Origin: a bacterium
GTDB taxonomy: Bacteria > UBP15 > UBA6099
Assembly: GCA_029564595.1 (NCBI GenBank)
Contig: JAKQPS010000120.1
Location: 16,424-80,423 of the forward strand
Length of the DNA: 64,000 nucleotides
Direction: 5' to 3'
Both the position numbers and the translations under genes were made by a program. Below, piece by piece: positions 5,617 to 22,143 of this stretch (position 1 is the stretch's first letter; every line of letters begins with the position of its first letter). The notes below the pieces were generated by a model. It made no database searches. It saw only the letters and a program-made list of their open reading frames with translations, and was not told where the DNA came from.

Positions 5617-7776
5617 TTATTCCGAGAGCGATTTTACCACCGTTTTCTCAATTGAATACTCGATGTCGCCGCCTGAAAGGTCCTTTAGAACCAAGCCCTC
5701 GACGTCAATGCCGCTTTCGCCGGGAGCCACCGCCCTGAAATACACCTTCACAATCGAACCTTCCGCGATGTCGAGAGGCGACGAGCGCCGGCCCTTTATC
5801 CCCGTTATCGCGCCGAGCTTGTTGTCTATGGCAGGATCGCGCCACGGAAGCGGCTGGCCCTTCTCCACGAACAGCGTGCCCTGCGACGCCATGACTGCCT
5901 GAAGCACGTCCGCGTTGAAACGCACCGTCATGTCCGCCTCGCCGATCTGCTCTATGTCGGTGACGAAAAGCTCGGCGGTGAAAAACATGCCGGGGTAGGT
6001 CTCGGCGGGAGCCCCAGTCCATCCCATCGCTACGGGCAGCGGGTCAACCGTCACCTCGCGCGTCACCGTCTTGTCCTCGGCGCTCTCGGAGGTTATGTTG
6101 AACTTGAGCGGAAGCGCGCCGGATTTTTCGCCGTTCGCCGACACGCGCCACGAGAACACAACTTCCTGCAGCCCGTCCAGCCTGCGGTAACTCTGTTCCG
6201 CTTTCTGAATGCGCGGGAACTCAAGCCCCTCCGGCAGAACCAGCTCCACTTTCAGGCCGTCCAGAGGCGACCTGCCGGTGTTCTTGCACTTGAGCTGCAC
6301 ATGGAACGGCGGGCCGTACGGGCCATACTCTCTCGTGGCCGCGCGCGACACCCTCTGCGGAGCGACAACCTCGGTCGCCACGTCCGGCGGAGAAAGAAGG
6401 GTGACGCCGATTTTCAGATGCACGGAGTCCACCTCGCGGGCGCTTCCGGAGATTGTTAATTCCTTTTCGCCGCCCGCGCCCGGTTTCGGGCGTATCACCC
6501 AGCCGATGGTCGCCTCTTCGCCCGGCTCCAGCTTCGCAAAGCGTCTGACGCCGGAGTCCCTGCCCGCAAACTCGATCCCCGCAGGCAGGTCGATTGTTAT
6601 CAGCACATCGTTCAGAGTTATGTTCGAACTGTTCGCCACGTATGCGTACAGCGTGTATGGCCTTATCTGGTTTTTCGCGGTCGACCATTCGCCGAGATGG
6701 CGGTTGGCCCCGATGCTCAGCACATCGCCGACCACGTCGAGATAGTCGATGCCGAACAGGGTGGCCACCTGAAGCTCGCCCTGAGCCGGGACAACCGTCT
6801 CGTCCCAGTAGAGCGCGGTGGCGCTGTCCATGTCGTCCTCGTTCTCCCTCTGGAACGAGCCTCCCGGCGTGTGGTGGACGGTCCACAGGTTATCCGCCAC
6901 CTTTCCCCAGTTGGCAAAAAGAACCCTGTCGGGAGTCGTCAGTCCCGGCCCGCGGAGCGTGCCGCGCGCCACCACTCCGGGGTCTTCCAGCGAGTCGAAA
7001 GCGATCCAGTATTCAGGCACGTCCGCGCCGGTCAACTCGGTCTCGGAAGTCACGCTCGATTCGCCCACCTTGAACGGAGAGCCGTCGTTGCTGCCGAGGA
7101 AAGTGTCTATAACCGCCCTGACGCCCACCTTGCGCGGCGAAGCTCCCAGATTGCGTATGTCGTAGCTAATCTTTATCGTGTCGTTAAGTTTCGAGACCGG
7201 GCCGCTGACGATGCTCAGCGTTTGAGTCACCTCGACGTCTTCCATGCGGTATCTGGAGACGATGGCGTTGGCGCCGCTCGTCCGGGGAAGGTCCACCGGC
7301 TGACCGTATAGCGCGTCGCGACCCGCCCGCCTGTGCGTTGAGCCGCCGAACACGTAGTTCTTCCCGTCTATCCGAATCGTGGTGAAAGACGTCCACGGCA
7401 GCGCGCCGCCGTAGATGAGTATCTTGCTGTCGTCAGTGTCCCGCGCCGGGTCGCCTTTGACTGTGCGGGCAAGGAACCGGCCCGTGTCCACCGGCATCAC
7501 ATTCACGTGCGCCGATATGAAGTCGTTGCTGATTACCAACTCCTTGGGGCCGTCGTACTGCGGGGCCGGGTCTGCAGCCGGGGAATGACCCTCTGCCGGA
7601 GCCGGAGATGGAGCGGGCGTCGCCGCCGGAGCAGGCTCGGTGTTCAGGACTCCGTTCACGTCCGCTATGCGCGGCTTGGGACTCTCTTCGGCTCCGCGCA
7701 CGGGCAGAGCGAAAAGCGATAGAGCGACAGCCGCCGCCGCCAGCCATGCCGCCGCTATTGTGAGTTTTTTCATCAT
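5617..7776 (-). CDS. Large secreted protein of unknown function (possible cohesin-like C-terminal domain)
   Basis: Start chosen at ATG 7776 (MMKKLTIAAAWLAAAAVALSLFALPVRG signal peptide), which overlaps the upstream TGA stop (ATGATGA), rather than the ORF-track start at 7818. Pro/Ala-rich linker then about 650 aa globular region. Confidence 0.65.
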   Translation of the reverse strand: MMKKLTIAAAWLAAAAVALSLFALPVRGAEESPKPRIADVNGVLNTEPAPAATPAPSPAPAEGHSPAADPAPQYDGPKELVISNDFISAHVNVMPVDTGRFLARTVKGDPARDTDDSKILIYGGALPWTSFTTIRIDGKNYVFGGSTHRRAGRDALYGQPVDLPRTSGANAIVSRYRMEDVEVTQTLSIVSGPVSKLNDTIKISYDIRNLGASPRKVGVRAVIDTFLGSNDGSPFKVGESSVTSETELTGADVPEYWIAFDSLEDPGVVARGTLRGPGLTTPDRVLFANWGKVADNLWTVHHTPGGSFQRENEDDMDSATALYWDETVVPAQGELQVATLFGIDYLDVVGDVLSIGANRHLGEWSTAKNQIRPYTLYAYVANSSNITLNDVLITIDLPAGIEFAGRDSGVRRFAKLEPGEEATIGWVIRPKPGAGGEKELTISGSAREVDSVHLKIGVTLLSPPDVATEVVAPQRVSRAATREYGPYGPPFHVQLKCKNTGRSPLDGLKVELVLPEGLEFPRIQKAEQSYRRLDGLQEVVFSWRVSANGEKSGALPLKFNITSESAEDKTVTREVTVDPLPVAMGWTGAPAETYPGMFFTAELFVTDIEQIGEADMTVRFNADVLQAVMASQGTLFVEKGQPLPWRDPAIDNKLGAITGIKGRRSSPLDIAEGSIVKVYFRAVAPGESGIDVEGLVLKDLSGGDIEYSIEKTVVKSLSE

Positions 7777-11343: not shown

Positions 11344-12053
11344 TGAGCGGCAAGAAAAACATATCGGTCGCGATAGACGGTCCGGCTGGAGCCGGGAAGA
11401 GCACGATCGCCAAGCTGGTGGCGCGAGCCTTCGGTCTGGAATACGCGGACACCGGGGCGATGTACCGTGGCGTGGCTCTTGTGGCGCGGCGCGCGGGCGT
11501 CGCCGCGGACGACGAGGCGGCTCTTTCCCGCATCGCATCGGAAGCCGTATTCTCATTCGAGGCCGTCGAGCGCGGCGGCTCCCTCGTCAACCGCGTCTTC
11601 ATCAACGGCGAGGAAGTCACGGACGCCATCCGCGAGCCTGAAATCTCTTCGACGGCCTCGACGGTGTCCGCGCTCAGCGGAGTGCGGGCCGCTCTGGTTG
11701 CCAAACAGAAACAAATGGGGGCCGCTGGCGGCGTCGCCATGGAAGGCCGCGACATCGGAAGCGTCGTCCTGCCGGACGCCGAGGTCAAGATTTTCCTCAC
11801 TGCGTCCCCCGAAGCCCGCGCCCGCCGCAGGCATCTTGAACTGCTCGCCGCAGGAAAATCCGCGGATTACGACACTGTCCTCAAAGAGATATCCGAGCGC
11901 GACCAGCGCGACGCCACCCGCGCCGACTCTCCCCTCAAACAAGCCGACGACGCGGCGCTGGTGGATACGGACAACCTGTCCATCGAGCAGGTCGTCTCTC
12001 ATATCTGCGATATTGTGACGGAAAAAACGGGCCGACGGCCCCTTACGGCTTGA
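11340..12053 (+). CDS. cmk: Cytidylate kinase
   Basis: 237 aa; P-loop IAIDGPAGAGKST and MEGRDIGSVV motif; start overlaps hisC stop (ATGA). Confidence 0.85.
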   Translation: MMSGKKNISVAIDGPAGAGKSTIAKLVARAFGLEYADTGAMYRGVALVARRAGVAADDEAALSRIASEAVFSFEAVERGGSLVNRVFINGEEVTDAIREPEISSTASTVSALSGVRAALVAKQKQMGAAGGVAMEGRDIGSVVLPDAEVKIFLTASPEARARRRHLELLAAGKSADYDTVLKEISERDQRDATRADSPLKQADDAALVDTDNLSIEQVVSHICDIVTEKTGRRPLTA

Positions 12054-12918
12054 TTCCCAGCAAACGCTTTATCGGAGAGGCCTTCTTCATCGCCTTCGCC
12101 TCCCGCGTGTTCTCCTCGCAGAATTCCAGATGCCTCGACTTGAATTCGCGCAAAGACGCGTTTTCCTTCTTCAACACTTCGACGGACTTCCTGATTTCCT
12201 CGACCGCGTTCTCTTTCTGAGAAAGCTTGGCGCGGACAACCCGCAATTCTTCCTTCACGCGCGCCACATCCGCCGCCGAGTCTCCGCTTTCCGCGATCTT
12301 ATCTATTCTTTCCTCTATCGAGGCTAGTTGTTTTTTTATCTGTTCAAGGGACTCCCTGTCCTTGCCCGCCGAAGCGTTCATGGCGGCCGCAAGAGAGCCT
12401 AACGCCCTGCTGATGTTCTCGCGCAACTGCCTGTTTTCGGCGCGAGCCTCTTCCCTCACCGTCTCGACCGCCTTCAGCATCTGAAGCGCGATCGCATTCA
12501 CCACCATCGTCTGCTTCTCGTTCATGGCGAGGAACTTCGCCATGAGATTCCCGCCATTGCCCGCCGCCGCAGCCTTCGCGTCTGGCGCGGCCGCCCTGCT
12601 CCGCTCAACTTCCAGCGCGCCGGTCTCAAGCGGCATCGTCGTCTGCGCCGGAACCCCGCCTTTCGGCGTCGCGTCTATCGGATACTTCTCGGCCAGCTTC
12701 TCCGTTATCGCGTCCCACGGCAGGTGCTGCTCCTCGCGCATATCCCGGATGTCCTTCAGGATATCCACCGCTTCCGCTCTGTACCTGCGCGAGCGGCCCG
12801 TCCCGACTCCGGGTATGAAATCGCTGAACAACTCCCTGTATTTCCTCAGCGAGCTTTCAGGCACGTCCAACTGCTTGGCTATATCTTTCAATGTCATCAA
12901 TCGCGACAAGTTATTCAC
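12043..12918 (-). CDS. MerR-like HTH DNA-binding protein with long coiled-coil C-terminal region
   Basis: 291 aa; N-terminal MTLKDIAKQLDVPESSLRKYRE helix-turn-helix; C-terminal heptad-rich region. Confidence 0.6.
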   Translation of the reverse strand: MNNLSRLMTLKDIAKQLDVPESSLRKYRELFSDFIPGVGTGRSRRYRAEAVDILKDIRDMREEQHLPWDAITEKLAEKYPIDATPKGGVPAQTTMPLETGALEVERSRAAAPDAKAAAAGNGGNLMAKFLAMNEKQTMVVNAIALQMLKAVETVREEARAENRQLRENISRALGSLAAAMNASAGKDRESLEQIKKQLASIEERIDKIAESGDSAADVARVKEELRVVRAKLSQKENAVEEIRKSVEVLKKENASLREFKSRHLEFCEENTREAKAMKKASPIKRLLGIKP

Positions 12919-13063
12919 CCGACCAGAACCTGTTTCGCATCAATCAGGACTTCCCTTTGACTGAATGCGCATAATATATCATACGGCATATACACTGTCA
13001 AAATATCAGTAGAGTAATTTTTTTGTGTAAGTGTATATTGACTTTTCAATTTATTGGCGGTAA

Positions 13064-14401
13064 TCAGCCCGGCGCCGGAGAGTCGTTCGCCGCATCCTGT
13101 TTCTGCTTCAGCGGCCGCAGGCCGATGAAAGCGGCCAGCGCGCAGACTCCCAGTATCGCCGCGCAAGCGCCGAACGGCGCGTAGCGGCCCGCGAGATTGT
13201 ACGTGTTCTCCGCGATTGTTATCTCGATTTTCAGCCCGTCGCCATATAGCACCGGACCAAGGAAAAGGCCGATCGCCGCCCCGGCTCCCTGAAACGCCGT
13301 TACCACGCCCAGAACAGCCCCGCGAAGCCCCGCCCACTCGCCGCGCGTCACCAGCGCCATCCACGCCGGCGCGCCCACAACAAACGCCAGCCCGTACCCC
13401 GCAGCCGCCACCCCCAGCGTCCACGGCTCCCTCACAATCGCCATCAGCCCGAGACATACCGCGGAGATGGACATCGACACTTTTACCGCCGCCTCCCTGC
13501 CCGCGACGTCCGCCAAGCGGCCCGCAGGCAGCGCCAACAGCGCTATCCCCGCCCCCGCCAGCGGGATCACGTACCACAAATCCTTCTCCTCCCATCCAAG
13601 CTCGTCGAATAGGAAGAAGAACGTCGTGTGCGTCACCATGCTCGTGCCCATCATCTGCATGAACGCGATGAAAATCAGAGTGGCGAGCTGTCCCAGAACC
13701 GGCCAGTCCGTCAGCAGTTTCTTCAGGTTCTGCGCCATCGTAGCCGGGTCGGCGGCGCGCGCCCGCGCGTCAACGCCCGCTTTCACCGCCCTGCATATCC
13801 TCTTCGACGACCACACCGTCAGAACCATCGCGCACACCATCAGCAGGCTCATAGTCGCGAACACGTGCTCATAGTCGCCGAACGTCGCTTTAATCAGCGG
13901 GGCCAGAGTGAACCCTATGCCGAGGCTGCACAACATGCAGATGGTAAAAACGCTCATCGCGGTTGCGCGGTGTTTCTCGTCCGTCGCGTCCGCGAACAGG
14001 GCGATAATCGCCGGCCACAGCGCGGCGGCCCCCGCCCCGTCTATCAGCCTCAGCGCCAGAAACGCTCCCGGCCCCTGCGCCTTGGCGTAAAAAAACGGCG
14101 TCACCATCCCCACCGCTAAGCTCAGCATCACAAGATTCGTCCGCTTCACCCGGTCGCCCAGCCCGCCCGTGATCGGCTTCAGCGCCGTCTCAGACAACAC
14201 GAACCCAGACTGCGCCGCCCCGGCCAGCACCTTCGACCATCCCCTGCCCGCAAACAACAGCGGAACCAACGGGATCATCATCTTATAGCAAAGGTCCGCC
14301 GACAGCGTCACCGCCGCAAGCAGCAACACCACCGGATACCTTCGGAAAAATTCCCTTATCGATATCCTCGCCTCGTTGTCCGCTCCCCGTTCCGTAAACA
14401 T
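13064..14401 (-). CDS. MFS transporter
   Basis: 445 aa with about 12 hydrophobic segments; motif GGLGDRVKR in the TM2-3 loop position typical of major facilitator superfamily. Confidence 0.8.
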   Translation of the reverse strand: MFTERGADNEARISIREFFRRYPVVLLLAAVTLSADLCYKMMIPLVPLLFAGRGWSKVLAGAAQSGFVLSETALKPITGGLGDRVKRTNLVMLSLAVGMVTPFFYAKAQGPGAFLALRLIDGAGAAALWPAIIALFADATDEKHRATAMSVFTICMLCSLGIGFTLAPLIKATFGDYEHVFATMSLLMVCAMVLTVWSSKRICRAVKAGVDARARAADPATMAQNLKKLLTDWPVLGQLATLIFIAFMQMMGTSMVTHTTFFFLFDELGWEEKDLWYVIPLAGAGIALLALPAGRLADVAGREAAVKVSMSISAVCLGLMAIVREPWTLGVAAAGYGLAFVVGAPAWMALVTRGEWAGLRGAVLGVVTAFQGAGAAIGLFLGPVLYGDGLKIEITIAENTYNLAGRYAPFGACAAILGVCALAAFIGLRPLKQKQDAANDSPAPG

Positions 14402-14527
14402 CCTCGTATCGCTCCCTTATAAAACGCCCGTTTTTTTATCAGCATTGAAAAAATGCGCTTCATGTTTTTCTCCGCTGCCAAAAACATCCCTGAGTATCGC
14501 GCAAACTAAGTGATTGAAACTGCACAA

Positions 14528-14614
14528 TTTGGAGTGCGGCGATTCATCGCCTTTATTTTGATAAGCGACTGAAGTCGCTTATATGAAAGCGACAATGAAT
14601 TGTCGCACTCCAAA
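14528..14614. repeat. Nested palindrome cluster: 20-bp inverted repeat arms (2 mismatches) enclosing perfect palindromes ATAAGCGACT-GA-AGTCGCTTAT and GCGACAAT-GA-ATTGTCGC
   Basis: Read directly: arms TTTGGAGTGCGGCGATTCAT (14528-14547) and ATGAATTGTCGCACTCCAAA (14595-14614); inner palindromes at 14561-14582 and 14589-14606. Confidence 0.6.
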
Positions 14615-14677
14615 GCAAAACAAACATAAACCCTTCTTCACATATGCAATATTTTCAACTGCGCGACTGCCTGTGTT

Positions 14678-15541
14678 TCATTGGTAGTCATGAAAATATT
14701 GATGCATTCTTTCCCTAATACTTATGCATTGCTGACACAAACCATCCGCTTGTTTTCCATCAACTTCAACTATGGCTGCTCCTGATAAAAGTATTAATGT
14801 CATCAAATCGAGCGTGTTCTTTATCGCACGGATATGCATTCTTGGAATGGGGTCTATATTCACCAGTCGAACATCTCCGCTTTCATAGATAAACAAATCA
14901 TCCGGCCCTCTTTTGCCATGTGTGATCATGCAGAAATCACGATACGATTTTTTATATTCATTTCTGAAGTGGCCAGAATTGTGCTTGGCATCGATTCTAT
15001 CGCATTCTTGTTGATAATTTAATTGATTCCCGAGCGCTTTTACTCTTTCTTTGCTGCTGGAAGTTAAATCTGCAGATTCAATTTCTCTTTCAAGTCCAGA
15101 CTTCATTTCTCCTAGTTCGTTCAGGTAGTCAGCATAATCTTTAGAGTAATATTCGTAGATTTTTTTGTGTTCATTTATCTCATTTAGTCGAAAACCAAAT
15201 GCCGCTTCTATTGGCTCATCTTTTAATATTAGAATTCGTATCCAACACTCCCATAATGTTCGAATTATTATGTATGCGGAATCAGGATATCCTGACAAAG
15301 ATATTTTTAACGCAGCAACACAATGTCTGAAAGACCTTGCTAGCACAGGAACAAGAACTTCGTCATGAATAATGCTTTTATTCGGATACTCGATTTCTGT
15401 TTTTATTATCCCAAATAGAATCTTTTCGCATTCTTCTAAAAGTTCCAAAACACCCTTAATCTGTATGATGTTCTCTTCGTGCTTGTCATTCATTGCTTTA
15501 TTAAAACGTAACCAACCCACATGTTCGTCAAGAATTTCCAT
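14678..15541 (-). CDS. Hypothetical protein in AT-rich island; possible HEPN-like Rx6H motif
   Basis: Start chosen at ATG 15541 (MEILDEH, AAGGG upstream) rather than the GTG at 15637. Strongly AT-rich codon usage unlike neighbours. RDFCMITH near C-terminus fits R-x(4-6)-H. No family recognised. Confidence 0.5.
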   Translation of the reverse strand: MEILDEHVGWLRFNKAMNDKHEENIIQIKGVLELLEECEKILFGIIKTEIEYPNKSIIHDEVLVPVLARSFRHCVAALKISLSGYPDSAYIIIRTLWECWIRILILKDEPIEAAFGFRLNEINEHKKIYEYYSKDYADYLNELGEMKSGLEREIESADLTSSSKERVKALGNQLNYQQECDRIDAKHNSGHFRNEYKKSYRDFCMITHGKRGPDDLFIYESGDVRLVNIDPIPRMHIRAIKNTLDLMTLILLSGAAIVEVDGKQADGLCQQCISIRERMHQYFHDYQ

Positions 15542-15828
15542 GTCTGAACCCTTTTTATTCAAACATTTACACATAATCAGTTTTCTGCATTTCGTCAGAA
15601 CCATATAATTCTTTCTTTCTATAACCCTCATTGCCACGCGAACACGATTCTTATTATAGCGCCGACAAATCTAATAGTAAGCTTTGCCTAATTACTCGCC
15701 CGTTAAGATTATGTGAAAAATGGCGCTGTAAACGGAGGCGGTTTCATGTTATGATTCCACGAAAGCACAACCGTCGGCGCCGGGGTCTTTTGGCAACCGG
15801 GACGCGGCGGACATCGCGGAGGCGAACC

Positions 15829-16824
15829 ATGAAATGCTCCACATGCGGAACCAACCTCGAACCGGGCGACGCGTTTTGCCCTGAATGCGGAACAAAAGCG
15901 GCTCCCGCGCAGGCGGCCGCCAAACCCGCCGCGCCTCCGCCTCCGCAGCATCCTAAACAACCTGCCGCCGCAGCGCCGCCTCCGCAATATCCTAAACAGC
16001 CCGCAGCCGCCGAAGACGAGGAAATCCTCCCCGGCAAAAAGAAAAAAGAAAAGAAAGAAAAAAAACAGAAACTTCCTAAAGAGCCTAAAACGCCCAAAGC
16101 TCCGCGCGCGCCTAAGGCTCCGAAAGACCCGAACGCGAAGAAGAAACCAGTCGTACTGTTGATCGTGTTGCTGGTCGTCGCGGCCGGCGCGGCGGCATTT
16201 ATGACATTCGGCAATAAACCCTCCGAACCGCCCATGCCCATGCCCAACAGCGCCGTCCGCCCCGCCGCTCAGCGCCCTGCTTCCGCCCCTGCCGCCCGCG
16301 TTCCCAGAACTGGCGACATTCAGGAGCCCGGCGTGGACAAGTTCGCCGCCCGCATATGCCGCAACTCAATGTCAGACGTGAAAGCTGTGGACGACCTTAC
16401 CAGCTTCGAGTTCATCGCTAGAATATCCGCCGATCCCGCCGCTCTCGCGGCCAAGAAAATCGACATGAGGGACTACGTTTCCGCCGCCGCAGACGCGGTC
16501 CGCGCGGACATCGAGAAACAGGGAATGAAGCCCTGCGAAAGCTGCAACGTCGCCCTCGCCAAAGAGATGGAATGCGGACAAGTCCTCGGCGCGCTCGGCT
16601 CCGTTCTCGTCAAAGAAAACCTGCTGAAAAACACGCCCGAGATTCGGCCCGCCGCCGCCGAAACCGGCGTGGCGAACTGCGGCGTGTTCGTGCTCGAACA
16701 GAAATGGCCCGGCGCGGCTTCGCCCTCTCAGGTCGCCTATTTCACAGGCGAAATCAACGGCAGGCGGTCAATACTCTTCTACGCCGCCACCAGCCATTTC
16801 GCCTCTGAAATCGCGTCTCAATAG
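15829..16824 (+). CDS. Zinc-ribbon domain membrane protein with Pro-rich repeats
   Basis: Start chosen at ATG 15829 (GGAGG 8 nt upstream): MKCSTCGTNLEPGDAFCPECG zinc ribbon; duplicated PPPQHPKQPAAA; Lys-rich spacer; single TM VVLLIVLLVVAAGAAAF; extracytoplasmic domain. Confidence 0.6.
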   Translation: MKCSTCGTNLEPGDAFCPECGTKAAPAQAAAKPAAPPPPQHPKQPAAAAPPPQYPKQPAAAEDEEILPGKKKKEKKEKKQKLPKEPKTPKAPRAPKAPKDPNAKKKPVVLLIVLLVVAAGAAAFMTFGNKPSEPPMPMPNSAVRPAAQRPASAPAARVPRTGDIQEPGVDKFAARICRNSMSDVKAVDDLTSFEFIARISADPAALAAKKIDMRDYVSAAADAVRADIEKQGMKPCESCNVALAKEMECGQVLGALGSVLVKENLLKNTPEIRPAAAETGVANCGVFVLEQKWPGAASPSQVAYFTGEINGRRSILFYAATSHFASEIASQ

Positions 16825-17086
16825 ATGGAATAGGAATTAGCCAAAGAGTAACTTTTTTCAAGTTTCTCTTTGATCCTCTTTGAATATTTAAATATCGATG
16901 GGAGACAATCGCAGTCGCGATTCTCTCCCGTTGGGCGAATCAGAGGGCGATTCGTGAATCCGCCCTTGCATTCCTGCTTTGCCACCCCGTCCGTACGCCC
17001 CGCCGGGTCGCCCCCACAATCCGCATTCTTCTCGCGTTTTCTACCAATTAACATAAACCTACCTCCATAATAATAATCATAAATAG

Positions 17087-21898: not shown

Positions 21899-22101
21899 AT
21901 GTATAAAACCCGAATCCGCCTTTAGGATTTGAGAGCGAATCGCCTCCGCGCTTCCCCTCCCGACGACCCATACAAAATCATTTATGAATAAGATTCCACT
22001 GAAAAACCCTTATCCAACATCTTTTCACATGAGCGCGGCGGAGCGAAGGCGCGAACGCGCCCGCTTCGCCGCGCTCATTGAAACGTTTCAAAAGGGATTT
22101 T

Positions 22102-22131
22102 AAGGGAAAACTTTTTCAAAAGTTTTCCCTT
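22102..22131 (-). terminator. 13-bp perfect hairpin AAGGGAAAACTTT-TTCA-AAAGTTTTCCCTT, probable terminator of the oxidoreductase operon; member of a palindromic element family
   Basis: Immediately 3' of the stop at 22144; T-rich tract follows on the minus strand; core resembles GGGGAAA..TTTTTGCAAAAA..TTTCCCC elements near 26050 and 28850. Confidence 0.55.
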
Positions 22132-22143
22132 AACTCCCCGCCT

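Follow-up and report, generated by a model that had tools for sequence, protein, structure and literature searches.

Phage morons are single genes that carry their own promoter and terminator, lie between two other genes and deviate from them in composition. Here we describe a locus of similar layout in a 64,000-nucleotide (nt) stretch of bacterial DNA (JAKQPS010000120.1 of assembly GCA_029564595.1, positions 16,424 to 80,423 of the forward strand), referred to below as the window. The locus is a low-GC island that holds one gene of the DUF5677 family, which has statistical links to defense islands and no assigned function, together with a dense array of palindromes. As in a moron, there is one gene with its own upstream region and terminator-like hairpins, precisely inserted between two genes; the GC content of this cassette lies about 19 points below that of its surroundings, the cassette is absent from close relatives, and its hairpin units are common to tailed-phage contigs. 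Unlike a moron, it sits in a bacterial chromosome beside the dnaK operon and not in a prophage, and no phage copy of its gene was found. A preliminary description had proposed the gene as a solitary foreign toxin or defense candidate with a possible HEPN-type RNase motif. The most unexpected result of the present analysis, the hairpin family to which the palindromes belong, lies outside that hypothesis.

A low-GC island in place of a conserved spacer

The protein of the flanking major facilitator superfamily (MFS) gene was used to search one genome per species, which returned three close relatives: L012 (UBP15_UBA6099), L014 (ADurb.Bin236), and L013 (USCA_metabat.19; JAKQBV010000617). Two of these closely related genomes carry an empty site. 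L012 aligns to window positions 12001 to 14403 at 96.6% identity and to 15716 to 16966 at 91%, and the corresponding values for L014 are 94.8% and 90%. Between the aligned blocks, both genomes have only 115 to 116 nt, and the breakpoints are exact (14403/14404 and 15715/15716). This spacer is conserved between L012 and L014, while its similarity to the island does not go beyond the expectation from shuffled sequence. Since the empty sites hold a conserved and unrelated spacer, we conclude that positions 14404 to 15715 (1,312 bp) replaced an ancestral spacer, and the view that the gene is solitary and foreign is borne out. The contrast in composition given in the preliminary description, a codon usage more AT-rich than that of the neighbors, is equally clear: GC content is 36.5% in the gene and 37.4% in the 1.3-kb island, compared with 56% in the rest of the window and about 0.60 to 0.67 in the adjacent genes. 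At the island flanks there are no terminal repeats, no target-site duplication, and no recombinase. The island and its surroundings comprise the following features:

13064 to 14401, minus strand: MFS transporter gene (PF07690), host flank outside the island; DNA 94.8 to 96.6% identical to L012 and L014
14404 to 15715, no strand: low-GC island, 1,312 bp, GC 0.374, in place of the conserved spacer of 115 to 116 nt in the sister genomes
14404 to 14527, minus strand: 5' region of the MFS gene with its Shine-Dalgarno sequence, carried on the island; the stretch in which the window and L013 diverge most
14678 to 15541, minus strand: DUF5677-family gene, 287 amino acids (aa), with a PF18928 match, 34 phmmer relatives, a 28-sequence alignment (A1), and an AlphaFold2 (AF2) model
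15542 to 15715, minus strand: island-borne upstream region of the DUF5677 gene, presumed promoter; holds GATTATGTGTAAA at 15566 to 15578, mirrored at 15707 to 15719 at the island edge
15830 to 16824, plus strand: zinc-ribbon protein gene, host flank outside the island; 90 to 91% identical to L012 and L014 from 15716 on

On the left side, homology to the empty sites ends 2 nt short of the MFS start codon, so the entire region upstream of that gene, ribosome-binding site included, comes from the island. In a visual reading of the alignment, the third relative, L013, which carries the island, matches the window at about 98% identity over about 13800 to 15233 and at lower identity deeper in the MFS gene. 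In detail, its identity is mosaic: about 85 to 88% from 13269 to 13800, about 98% from 13800 to 14403, about 82% from 14404 to 14500, and about 97 to 99% from 14500 to 15233. In the divergent stretch from 14404 to about 14500, about 17 of 97 positions differ, against about 2% on either side. This pattern suggests recombination breakpoints together with a hypervariable stretch just upstream of the MFS gene, and from the alignment we read the tract of about 98% identity as a probable exchange by homologous recombination.

Within the DUF5677 gene, homology to L013 breaks off abruptly at window position 15233, and the last 138 nt of that contig are unrelated, which could reflect truncation, rearrangement, or an assembly chimera; the other end of the contig carries an Illumina adapter remnant, GCTCTTCCGATCT. 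In a further pair of near-identical contigs (L002 and L003, 99.96%), the MFS protein is called at 494 aa and not at 445 aa, a length polymorphism at the 3' end of the gene.

On the right side, the motif GATTATGTG(T/A)AAA is present in two copies, of which the one at 15566 to 15578 faces the DUF5677 start, and the one at 15707 to 15719 straddles the island boundary and faces the zinc-ribbon gene. A partial third copy, TTCACATA, lies at 14637 to 14644, between the DUF5677 stop codon and the hairpins. These copies may serve the divergent region as common promoter or operator elements. Judging by its position, the segment from 15542 to 15715 presumably holds the DUF5677 promoter, although a scan of the island for the sigma-70 consensus gave no match, which speaks against it.

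The cassette gene and the DUF5677 family

The gene at 14678 to 15541 (minus strand) is a genuine open reading frame (ORF), with 287 codons plus a stop codon where the preliminary description had counted 288 aa, and with an AAGGG Shine-Dalgarno-like sequence 7 nt before its ATG. An identical protein is called in five independent metagenome assemblies in identical context (zinc-ribbon gene, DUF5677 gene, and MFS gene, beside dnaK-grpE-dnaJ). In the 28-sequence alignment A1, the homologues start no more than about 12 residues from the called start, so that a GTG-initiated reading of 319 aa is unsupported. Between the gene copies of the window and L013, 11 codon differences are nonsynonymous and 9 are synonymous, for which our own rough estimate of the ratio of nonsynonymous to synonymous substitution rates (dN/dS) is about 0.4.

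Far from being an orphan of no recognizable family, the protein matches Pfam DUF5677 (PF18928/IPR043733) in hmmscan with an E value of 1.1e-9 and 39 bits, above the gathering score of 27.1. The match spans residues 61 to 210, corresponding to profile positions 2 to 151 of 166, and includes all of the invariant residues; all 28 aligned relatives also match the model. By its sequence, the locus gene is a full-length member of this known but uncharacterized family. An exhaustive phmmer search of 1.84 billion cluster representatives yielded only 34 relatives (clusters at 50% identity), most of them full length at about 280 aa and the nearest 38% identical. P0017 (a 2168-aa ankyrin/TPR protein) is a false relative, its match being repeat driven. 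Compared with DUF5677 proteins generally, the rare full-length subfamily of about 280 aa to which the query belongs adds two N-terminal helices and, at the C terminus, a beta-hairpin and two helices. Four residues are invariant in A1 (R72, G84, R94, and H208), and six more are at least 90% conserved (F71, Y85, E98, P110, G116, and Y196). The AF2 model is all-alpha, with a predicted local distance difference test (pLDDT) score of 91.8 and a predicted template modeling (pTM) score of 0.89.

A PDB sequence search with the query protein was empty, and a word-indexed protein search, run with the single sequence and also with A1, returned essentially only the query's own cluster. A look-up of clusters yielded only uninformative names. 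Searches by tblastn of cultured plasmid and phage collections with the query and with one relative (P0015) gave zero matches, and a scan of viral contigs for the protein found none. On a 52-kb metagenome contig (L021:6001-6760), a DUF5677 relative is split into short ORFs (6044 to 6256 and 6530 to 6760) and may be a pseudogene.

The palindromic element and a dispersed hairpin family

The palindromic element adjoining the gene, at 14528 to 14614, had been described as a 20-bp inverted repeat enclosing two perfect palindromes. The repeat exists (14528 to 14547 and 14595 to 14614, 90% complementary), as do perfect palindromes at 14561 to 14582 (10+10), 14589 to 14606 (8+8), and 14538 to 14551 (5+5); only the first of these is truly enclosed, however, the other two being the arms. 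That the symmetry exceeds the ordinary was correctly seen. As RNA, the element has fold z-scores of -10.4 (plus strand) and -6.6 (minus strand), a stability that none of 200 shuffles attained; as DNA, the scores are -8.3 and -7.6.

A search of IMG/VR with the 20-nt arm returned three otherwise unrelated contigs that are identical to the island over 29 to 33 nt. Two of these are demonstrable tailed phages: L025 encodes a portal protein, and L026 encodes a Mu-type portal, Mu F, Mor, and an amidase. The relaxed pattern TTTGGAGTGCG-N12-CGCTTT was then matched 45 times in 37 viral loci, and at least 3 of the 4 unconstrained stem positions are complementary in 42 of the matches. These have about 30 different stems and a variety of tetraloops, most often CTTG. 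The resulting unit of about 29 nt has the consensus TTTGGAGTGCG-stem-tetraloop-stem-CGCTTT(T). Its stem covaries: among 41 distinct copies, the four free pairs are paired in 89% of cases, compared with 64.5% in shuffles, and there are 44 double-sided stem changes, compared with 9.6 in shuffles, a value that none of 500 shuffles reached. Sliding the stem partner abolishes this signal, and ten close copies agree with it. Where related phages retain the unit at orthologous sites, its stems differ by compensated changes (L072/L027 and L073/L094).

A covariance model of the hairpin unit (R1) detects 60 copies in 343 kb of motif-bearing viral loci (37 loci: L025 to L027 and L069 to L102). The head TTTGGAGTGCG and the tail CGCTTT are identical in all 41 aligned copies, a uniformity that the search pattern itself demanded; the head is nevertheless kept in copies found without that demand (TTTGGAGT in L027b and GGAGTGCG in L064), and R1 adds about 15 copies. 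Inverted pairs occur about 10 times in the viral loci (for example, L074:4747-4838, L091:3128-3219, and L079:3357-3448). All are arranged heads out and tails in, as in the window, and none tails out; several have a central palindrome.

When the 64-kb window was scanned with R1 with filters off, two copies were found, both in the island. One of them, unit A, had been left out of the set from which R1 was built. The element thus resolves into the following parts:

14528 to 14614, no strand: composite palindrome consisting of a plus-strand unit, a central palindrome, and a minus-strand unit, heads outward; same architecture in viral L025, L074, L091, and L079
14525 to 14557, plus strand: hairpin unit A, then TTTATTTT; R1 score of 26 bits, E = 6e-5
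14561 to 14582, no strand: central perfect palindrome ATAAGCGACT GA AGTCGCTTAT, between both units; analogues in the viral doublets of L079 and L091
14583 to 14617, minus strand: hairpin unit B, complete, TTTGGAGT GCGACAA TTCA TTGTCGC TTT; R1 score of 42.7 bits, E = 3e-9

Unit B lies 61 nt downstream of the DUF5677 stop codon and is terminator-like in that orientation; its 29-nt core is identical in phage contig L026. A 27-nt deletion has shortened unit A with respect to L013, where the full unit and one extra hairpin are present, and this difference of a module indicates that the hairpin cluster changes by whole units. A terminator scan picked out the stems at 14606 to 14589 (minus strand, then TTTCATAT) and at 14538 to 14551 (plus strand, then TTTATTTT), each on its own strand; with 1.4 sites expected from shuffles, the scan alone is weak evidence. 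On these sequence comparisons we consider the palindrome to be a doublet of a dispersed hairpin motif and not an ad hoc operator.

R1 found no copy in 22 kb of the sister genomes L012 and L014 and none near any other DUF5677 gene, and no comparable palindrome lies downstream of eight DUF5677 relatives. Rfam 15 gave no relevant match at an E value of ≤10 between 13500 and 16500, and Rfam gave no gathering-level match in nine motif-bearing viral loci. String searches of the literature for the motif returned unrelated primers only, and the exact 33-mer did not occur in any record of a cultured phage or plasmid. The hairpin family appears to be undescribed.

Several other identities were considered for the element and rejected. 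ARAGORN finds no tRNA-like cloverleaf there. An integron attC site (RYYYAAC ... GTTRRRY) would need core sites, and the plus strand from 14528 to 14614 contains neither GTT nor AAC, so there is no core site in either orientation. The spacing is wrong for an HspR HAIR site and, by inspection, for a sigma-54 promoter. There are no spacers, as a CRISPR array would have, and no further copies in the window, as a host family of repetitive extragenic palindromic (REP) sequences would have.

Other repeats were seen along the way. The window has at 22100 to 22133 a perfect palindrome with a 15-bp stem, TTAAGGGAAAACTTTTTCAAAAGTTTTCCCTTAA, which resembles a bidirectional terminator and has a counterpart of different stem at the same position in L014 (L014:4730-4761). 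Phage contig L025 contains an iteron-like array of GGTGACAAG repeats in inverted blocks (5700 to 5825), and the Mu-like L026 contains three copies of a different hairpin, ACACGCACAAAC..GTTTGTGCGTG followed by CCACCC (2583 to 2621, 5967 to 6005, and 7345 to 7374).

Genomic neighborhoods of DUF5677 relatives

Genes of the relatives lie repeatedly beside known conflict genes. The neighbors are an MNT/HepT toxin-antitoxin pair for P0002; type I HsdR and YgjP upstream and a KAP P-loop NTPase downstream for P0003; McrBC and an N6/N4 methyltransferase for P0004; a ParE-like toxin for P0007; and an integrase, two resolvases, and a Schlafen/AlbA_2 protein for P0015. The relative on contig L020 is beside an AIPR protein, and that on L018 is beside a HEPN/Toprim (HEPN_Toprim_N) protein. 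A C5 methylase, Fic, and a Pycsar-like cyclase accompany further relatives, and others have plain housekeeping neighbors. By our own tally, about 7 of 10 informative neighborhoods hold toxin-antitoxin, restriction, abortive-infection, or integrase genes within about 5 kb. No partner gene is conserved downstream of the relatives. The gene for P0002, the closest relative (38% identity; L006:3953-4804), directly follows the MNT/HepT pair and is itself low in GC (0.405, against 0.584 for its contig); going by this composition, the subfamily seems to travel as low-GC cargo.

A 2025 preprint reports that DUF5677 is enriched in serine-recombinase-marked defense contigs of Bacillota (P = 2e-92; n = 25). 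Taken with the neighborhoods, this indicates a real link of DUF5677 to conflict loci at the level of gene content, and a role of the protein in defense or conflict is plausible by association.

Interpretation and alternative explanations

The best overall explanation, to which we give an about even chance of being right, is that of an acquired DUF5677 cassette that encodes an accessory conflict or defense protein and ends in a hairpin doublet acting as a bidirectional stop. The low-GC single-gene cassette at 14404 to 15715, moron-like in its layout, was acquired horizontally, replacing the 115- to 116-nt spacer between the MFS and zinc-ribbon genes in one lineage of an uncultured UBP15_UBA6099-related bacterium, and would now move between related lineages by homologous recombination via its flanks. 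Its cargo is a soluble all-alpha DUF5677 protein with a strict R72/R94-x3-E98/H208 constellation plus Y196. Because relatives adjoin toxin-antitoxin, restriction, and abortive-infection genes, our best guess is an accessory conflict or defense protein, in which the Arg, Glu, and His residues may form an active or ligand-binding site. The doublet would stop transcription from both directions; it would thereby end and stabilize the DUF5677 mRNA and keep the cassette insulated from the MFS gene. The data establish the island with its ends, the family of the protein, the conservation of its residues, its modeled fold, and the covarying hairpin family, while the promoter, the transcription stop, and any defense or enzymatic activity are inferred.

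The first alternative for the protein, a HEPN-type RNase toxin or abortive-infection protein with RDFCMITH (R201...H208) as its Rx4-6H active site, is the one that the preliminary description had put forward, and we now regard it as extremely improbable. The query does share with HEPN RNases and Abi proteins (AbiD/F Abi_2, AbiV, and HepT) an all-helical fold, a conserved His, a solitary gene, and defense neighborhoods. RDFCMITH is present, at residues 201 to 208 of 287 and not near the C terminus as had been stated, and its H208 is invariant. The reading is contradicted, however, because the conserved residues do not include the motif Arg. The column of R201 in A1 contains A in 11 sequences, R in 4, S in 4, G in 3, K in 3, V in 2, and T in 1, and an Arg 4 to 6 residues before H208 occurs in only 5 of 28 relatives. 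Nor is the motif a signal here: R-x(4-6)-H can be matched at four places in the protein, and at least one match turns up in 86% of shuffles that preserve composition. In Pfam searches, neither the query at an E value of ≤10 nor any of the 28 members at an E value of ≤1 matched a model of the HEPN clan or of Abi_2, and hhalign against a HepT protein gave a probability of 0.1%. Structure comparison of the confident model (pLDDT 92) returned no specific HEPN or Abi match: 53 generic helical matches rank above 2hsb, and Foldseek found nothing at an E value of <0.1 against the PDB or against viral structures. As modeled, the fold neither identifies a function nor supports HEPN membership. The protein differs from HEPN and Abi proteins in having no conserved Rx4-6H, no profile similarity, and, in these comparisons, a structural similarity that does not exceed that to generic helical bundles. 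The label of conflict or defense candidate is reasonable, given the conflict genes beside the relatives, although its original HEPN RNase basis fails. We are also doubtful of a second alternative, in which the gene is an accessory passenger outside defense (a regulator, an anti-defense or mobile-element maintenance factor, or a metabolic enzyme) that shares hotspots with other variable genes. The conflict or integrase genes in about 7 of 10 informative neighborhoods and the published enrichment in recombinase-marked defense contigs argue against a mere passenger, as do presence/absence polymorphism and fast evolution, which are typical of conflict genes. Several results nonetheless weigh against a conflict or defense protein. 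The window copy has housekeeping genes (dnaK-grpE-dnaJ, cmk, and hisC) and the MFS gene as neighbors, not the genes of a defense island. PADLOC-DB 2.0 gave 0 families for the query at an E value of ≤10, searches of NCBIfam and PHROGs with the query were empty, and the fold search yields generic helical bundles only, with no chemistry assignable to the conserved residues. We know of no defense or toxin activity of DUF5677. In the preprint cited above, the one DUF5677 ORF tested, in Enterococcus faecalis against 6 phages, was not among the 5 of 9 ORFs that were protective.

For the hairpins, the unit pairs a 7-bp GC-rich hairpin with TTT(T), and with pairs arranged heads out this reads as a stop from both sides; we infer that the doublet in the window acts as a bidirectional transcription stop. 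Four features of the family count against termination as the whole explanation. The T-run is short, at only 3 to 4 nt; many copies are antisense to flanking phage genes; in 17 of 41 copies, ACTCCAAA is followed by a gene start at a distance of at most 45 nt, compared with 26% at random positions, and the genes that start there include those for a large terminase subunit, Mu gp37, and a virion morphogenesis protein; and the invariant 11-nt head is unneeded for intrinsic termination. Given these features, termination alone does not explain the motif, and recognition of the head by a protein, be it as RNA or as single-stranded DNA, is a live alternative. It is very unlikely that the palindromes form an operator array for a dimeric transcription factor controlling the MFS or DUF5677 gene. 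Three or four GCGA-N-TCGC palindromes do lie at a spacing of 24 to 27 bp, 127 to 213 nt upstream of the MFS start codon, and MerR-family regulators are encoded nearby, but the loops are asymmetric and the unit is strand specific, its stems are not conserved but covary (which marks a single strand that folds and not a double-stranded DNA operator), the unit is found in many unrelated phages that share no regulator, and the element lies downstream of the DUF5677 gene and not at its promoter. A mobile or protein-recognized element is a more serious candidate, which we hold to be possible but less than probable: the doublet could be REP/REPIN-like (a REP doublet forming hairpins) or a site for a transposase, nuclease, or RNA-processing enzyme (in the manner of a CRISPR-repeat-like hairpin with an 8-nt handle), and would then be a mark of travel or a selfish passenger. 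This fits a stem that varies with compensation under a head conserved even in independently found copies, the identity over 29 to 33 nt between the island and otherwise unrelated phage contigs, and the modular turnover seen in the whole-unit 27-nt indel between the window and L013. It also fits the confinement of just two copies in the 64-kb window to the foreign island and the long hairpins that inverted doublets give, as in REPINs, and the reversed unit is a 29-nt hairpin plus ACTCCAAA, often immediately before a start codon. Units at orthologous positions with compensated stems, on the other hand, point to long-term retention and not recent insertion. No transposase or REP-associated tyrosine transposase (RAYT) was seen, a RAYT association not having been specifically searched for, and there are no target-site duplications or terminal repeats at the island, no spacer arrays, and a low copy number per genome.

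A bolder reading joins the two halves of the locus, and we advance it only tentatively, as less likely to be right than wrong. The unit would be an undescribed, widespread structured motif of tailed phages and of the cassettes that they exchange with bacteria. A conserved protein would read its 11-nt head, for instance a factor for RNA processing, termination, or antitermination, or else a transposase or nuclease acting on single-stranded DNA. In the heads-out doublet around a central palindrome, the motif would have its functional composite form; the cassette would be a phage-derived moron, and the DUF5677 protein a new single-gene conflict effector with an R/R/E/H site.

Comparison with known systems

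With exact boundaries, natural empty sites, and four invariant residues, the gene changes from a speculative HEPN toxin into a well-delimited test case for DUF5677. The locus also offers an instance in which an accessory gene, on landing, supplies the entire upstream region of a host transporter gene. The palindrome, an apparent one-off, becomes a member of a covarying, sequence-flanked hairpin family with representatives in dozens of phage contigs and none in Rfam 15. Should the head indeed be read by a protein, the motif would be a new regulatory or mobility signal common to unrelated phages.

The unit resembles intrinsic (Rho-independent) terminators in its GC-rich 7-bp stem, its tetraloop, often CTTG, its 3' T-run, and its heads-out doublets. 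It differs from them in its TTTGGAGTGCG 5' flank, which has no role in canonical termination and which, although fixed by the search pattern in most copies, is kept in independent ones, as well as in the brevity of the T-run and the many copies that are antisense to flanking genes. It shares further traits with REP sequences, REPINs, and bacterial interspersed mosaic elements (BIMEs) and with paired uptake-sequence terminators, as known from Escherichia coli REP, Pseudomonas REPIN, and Neisseria DNA uptake sequence (DUS) pairs. Like these, it is a short imperfect palindrome with a conserved flank, occurs extragenically, both singly and in inverted pairs that can form long hairpins, and changes copy number in a modular way. 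In contrast to them, it is scarce in the host (the 64-kb window has two copies, neither of them outside the island) and present in phage contigs, and its stems are not near-identical copies of one another but differ and covary between genomes.

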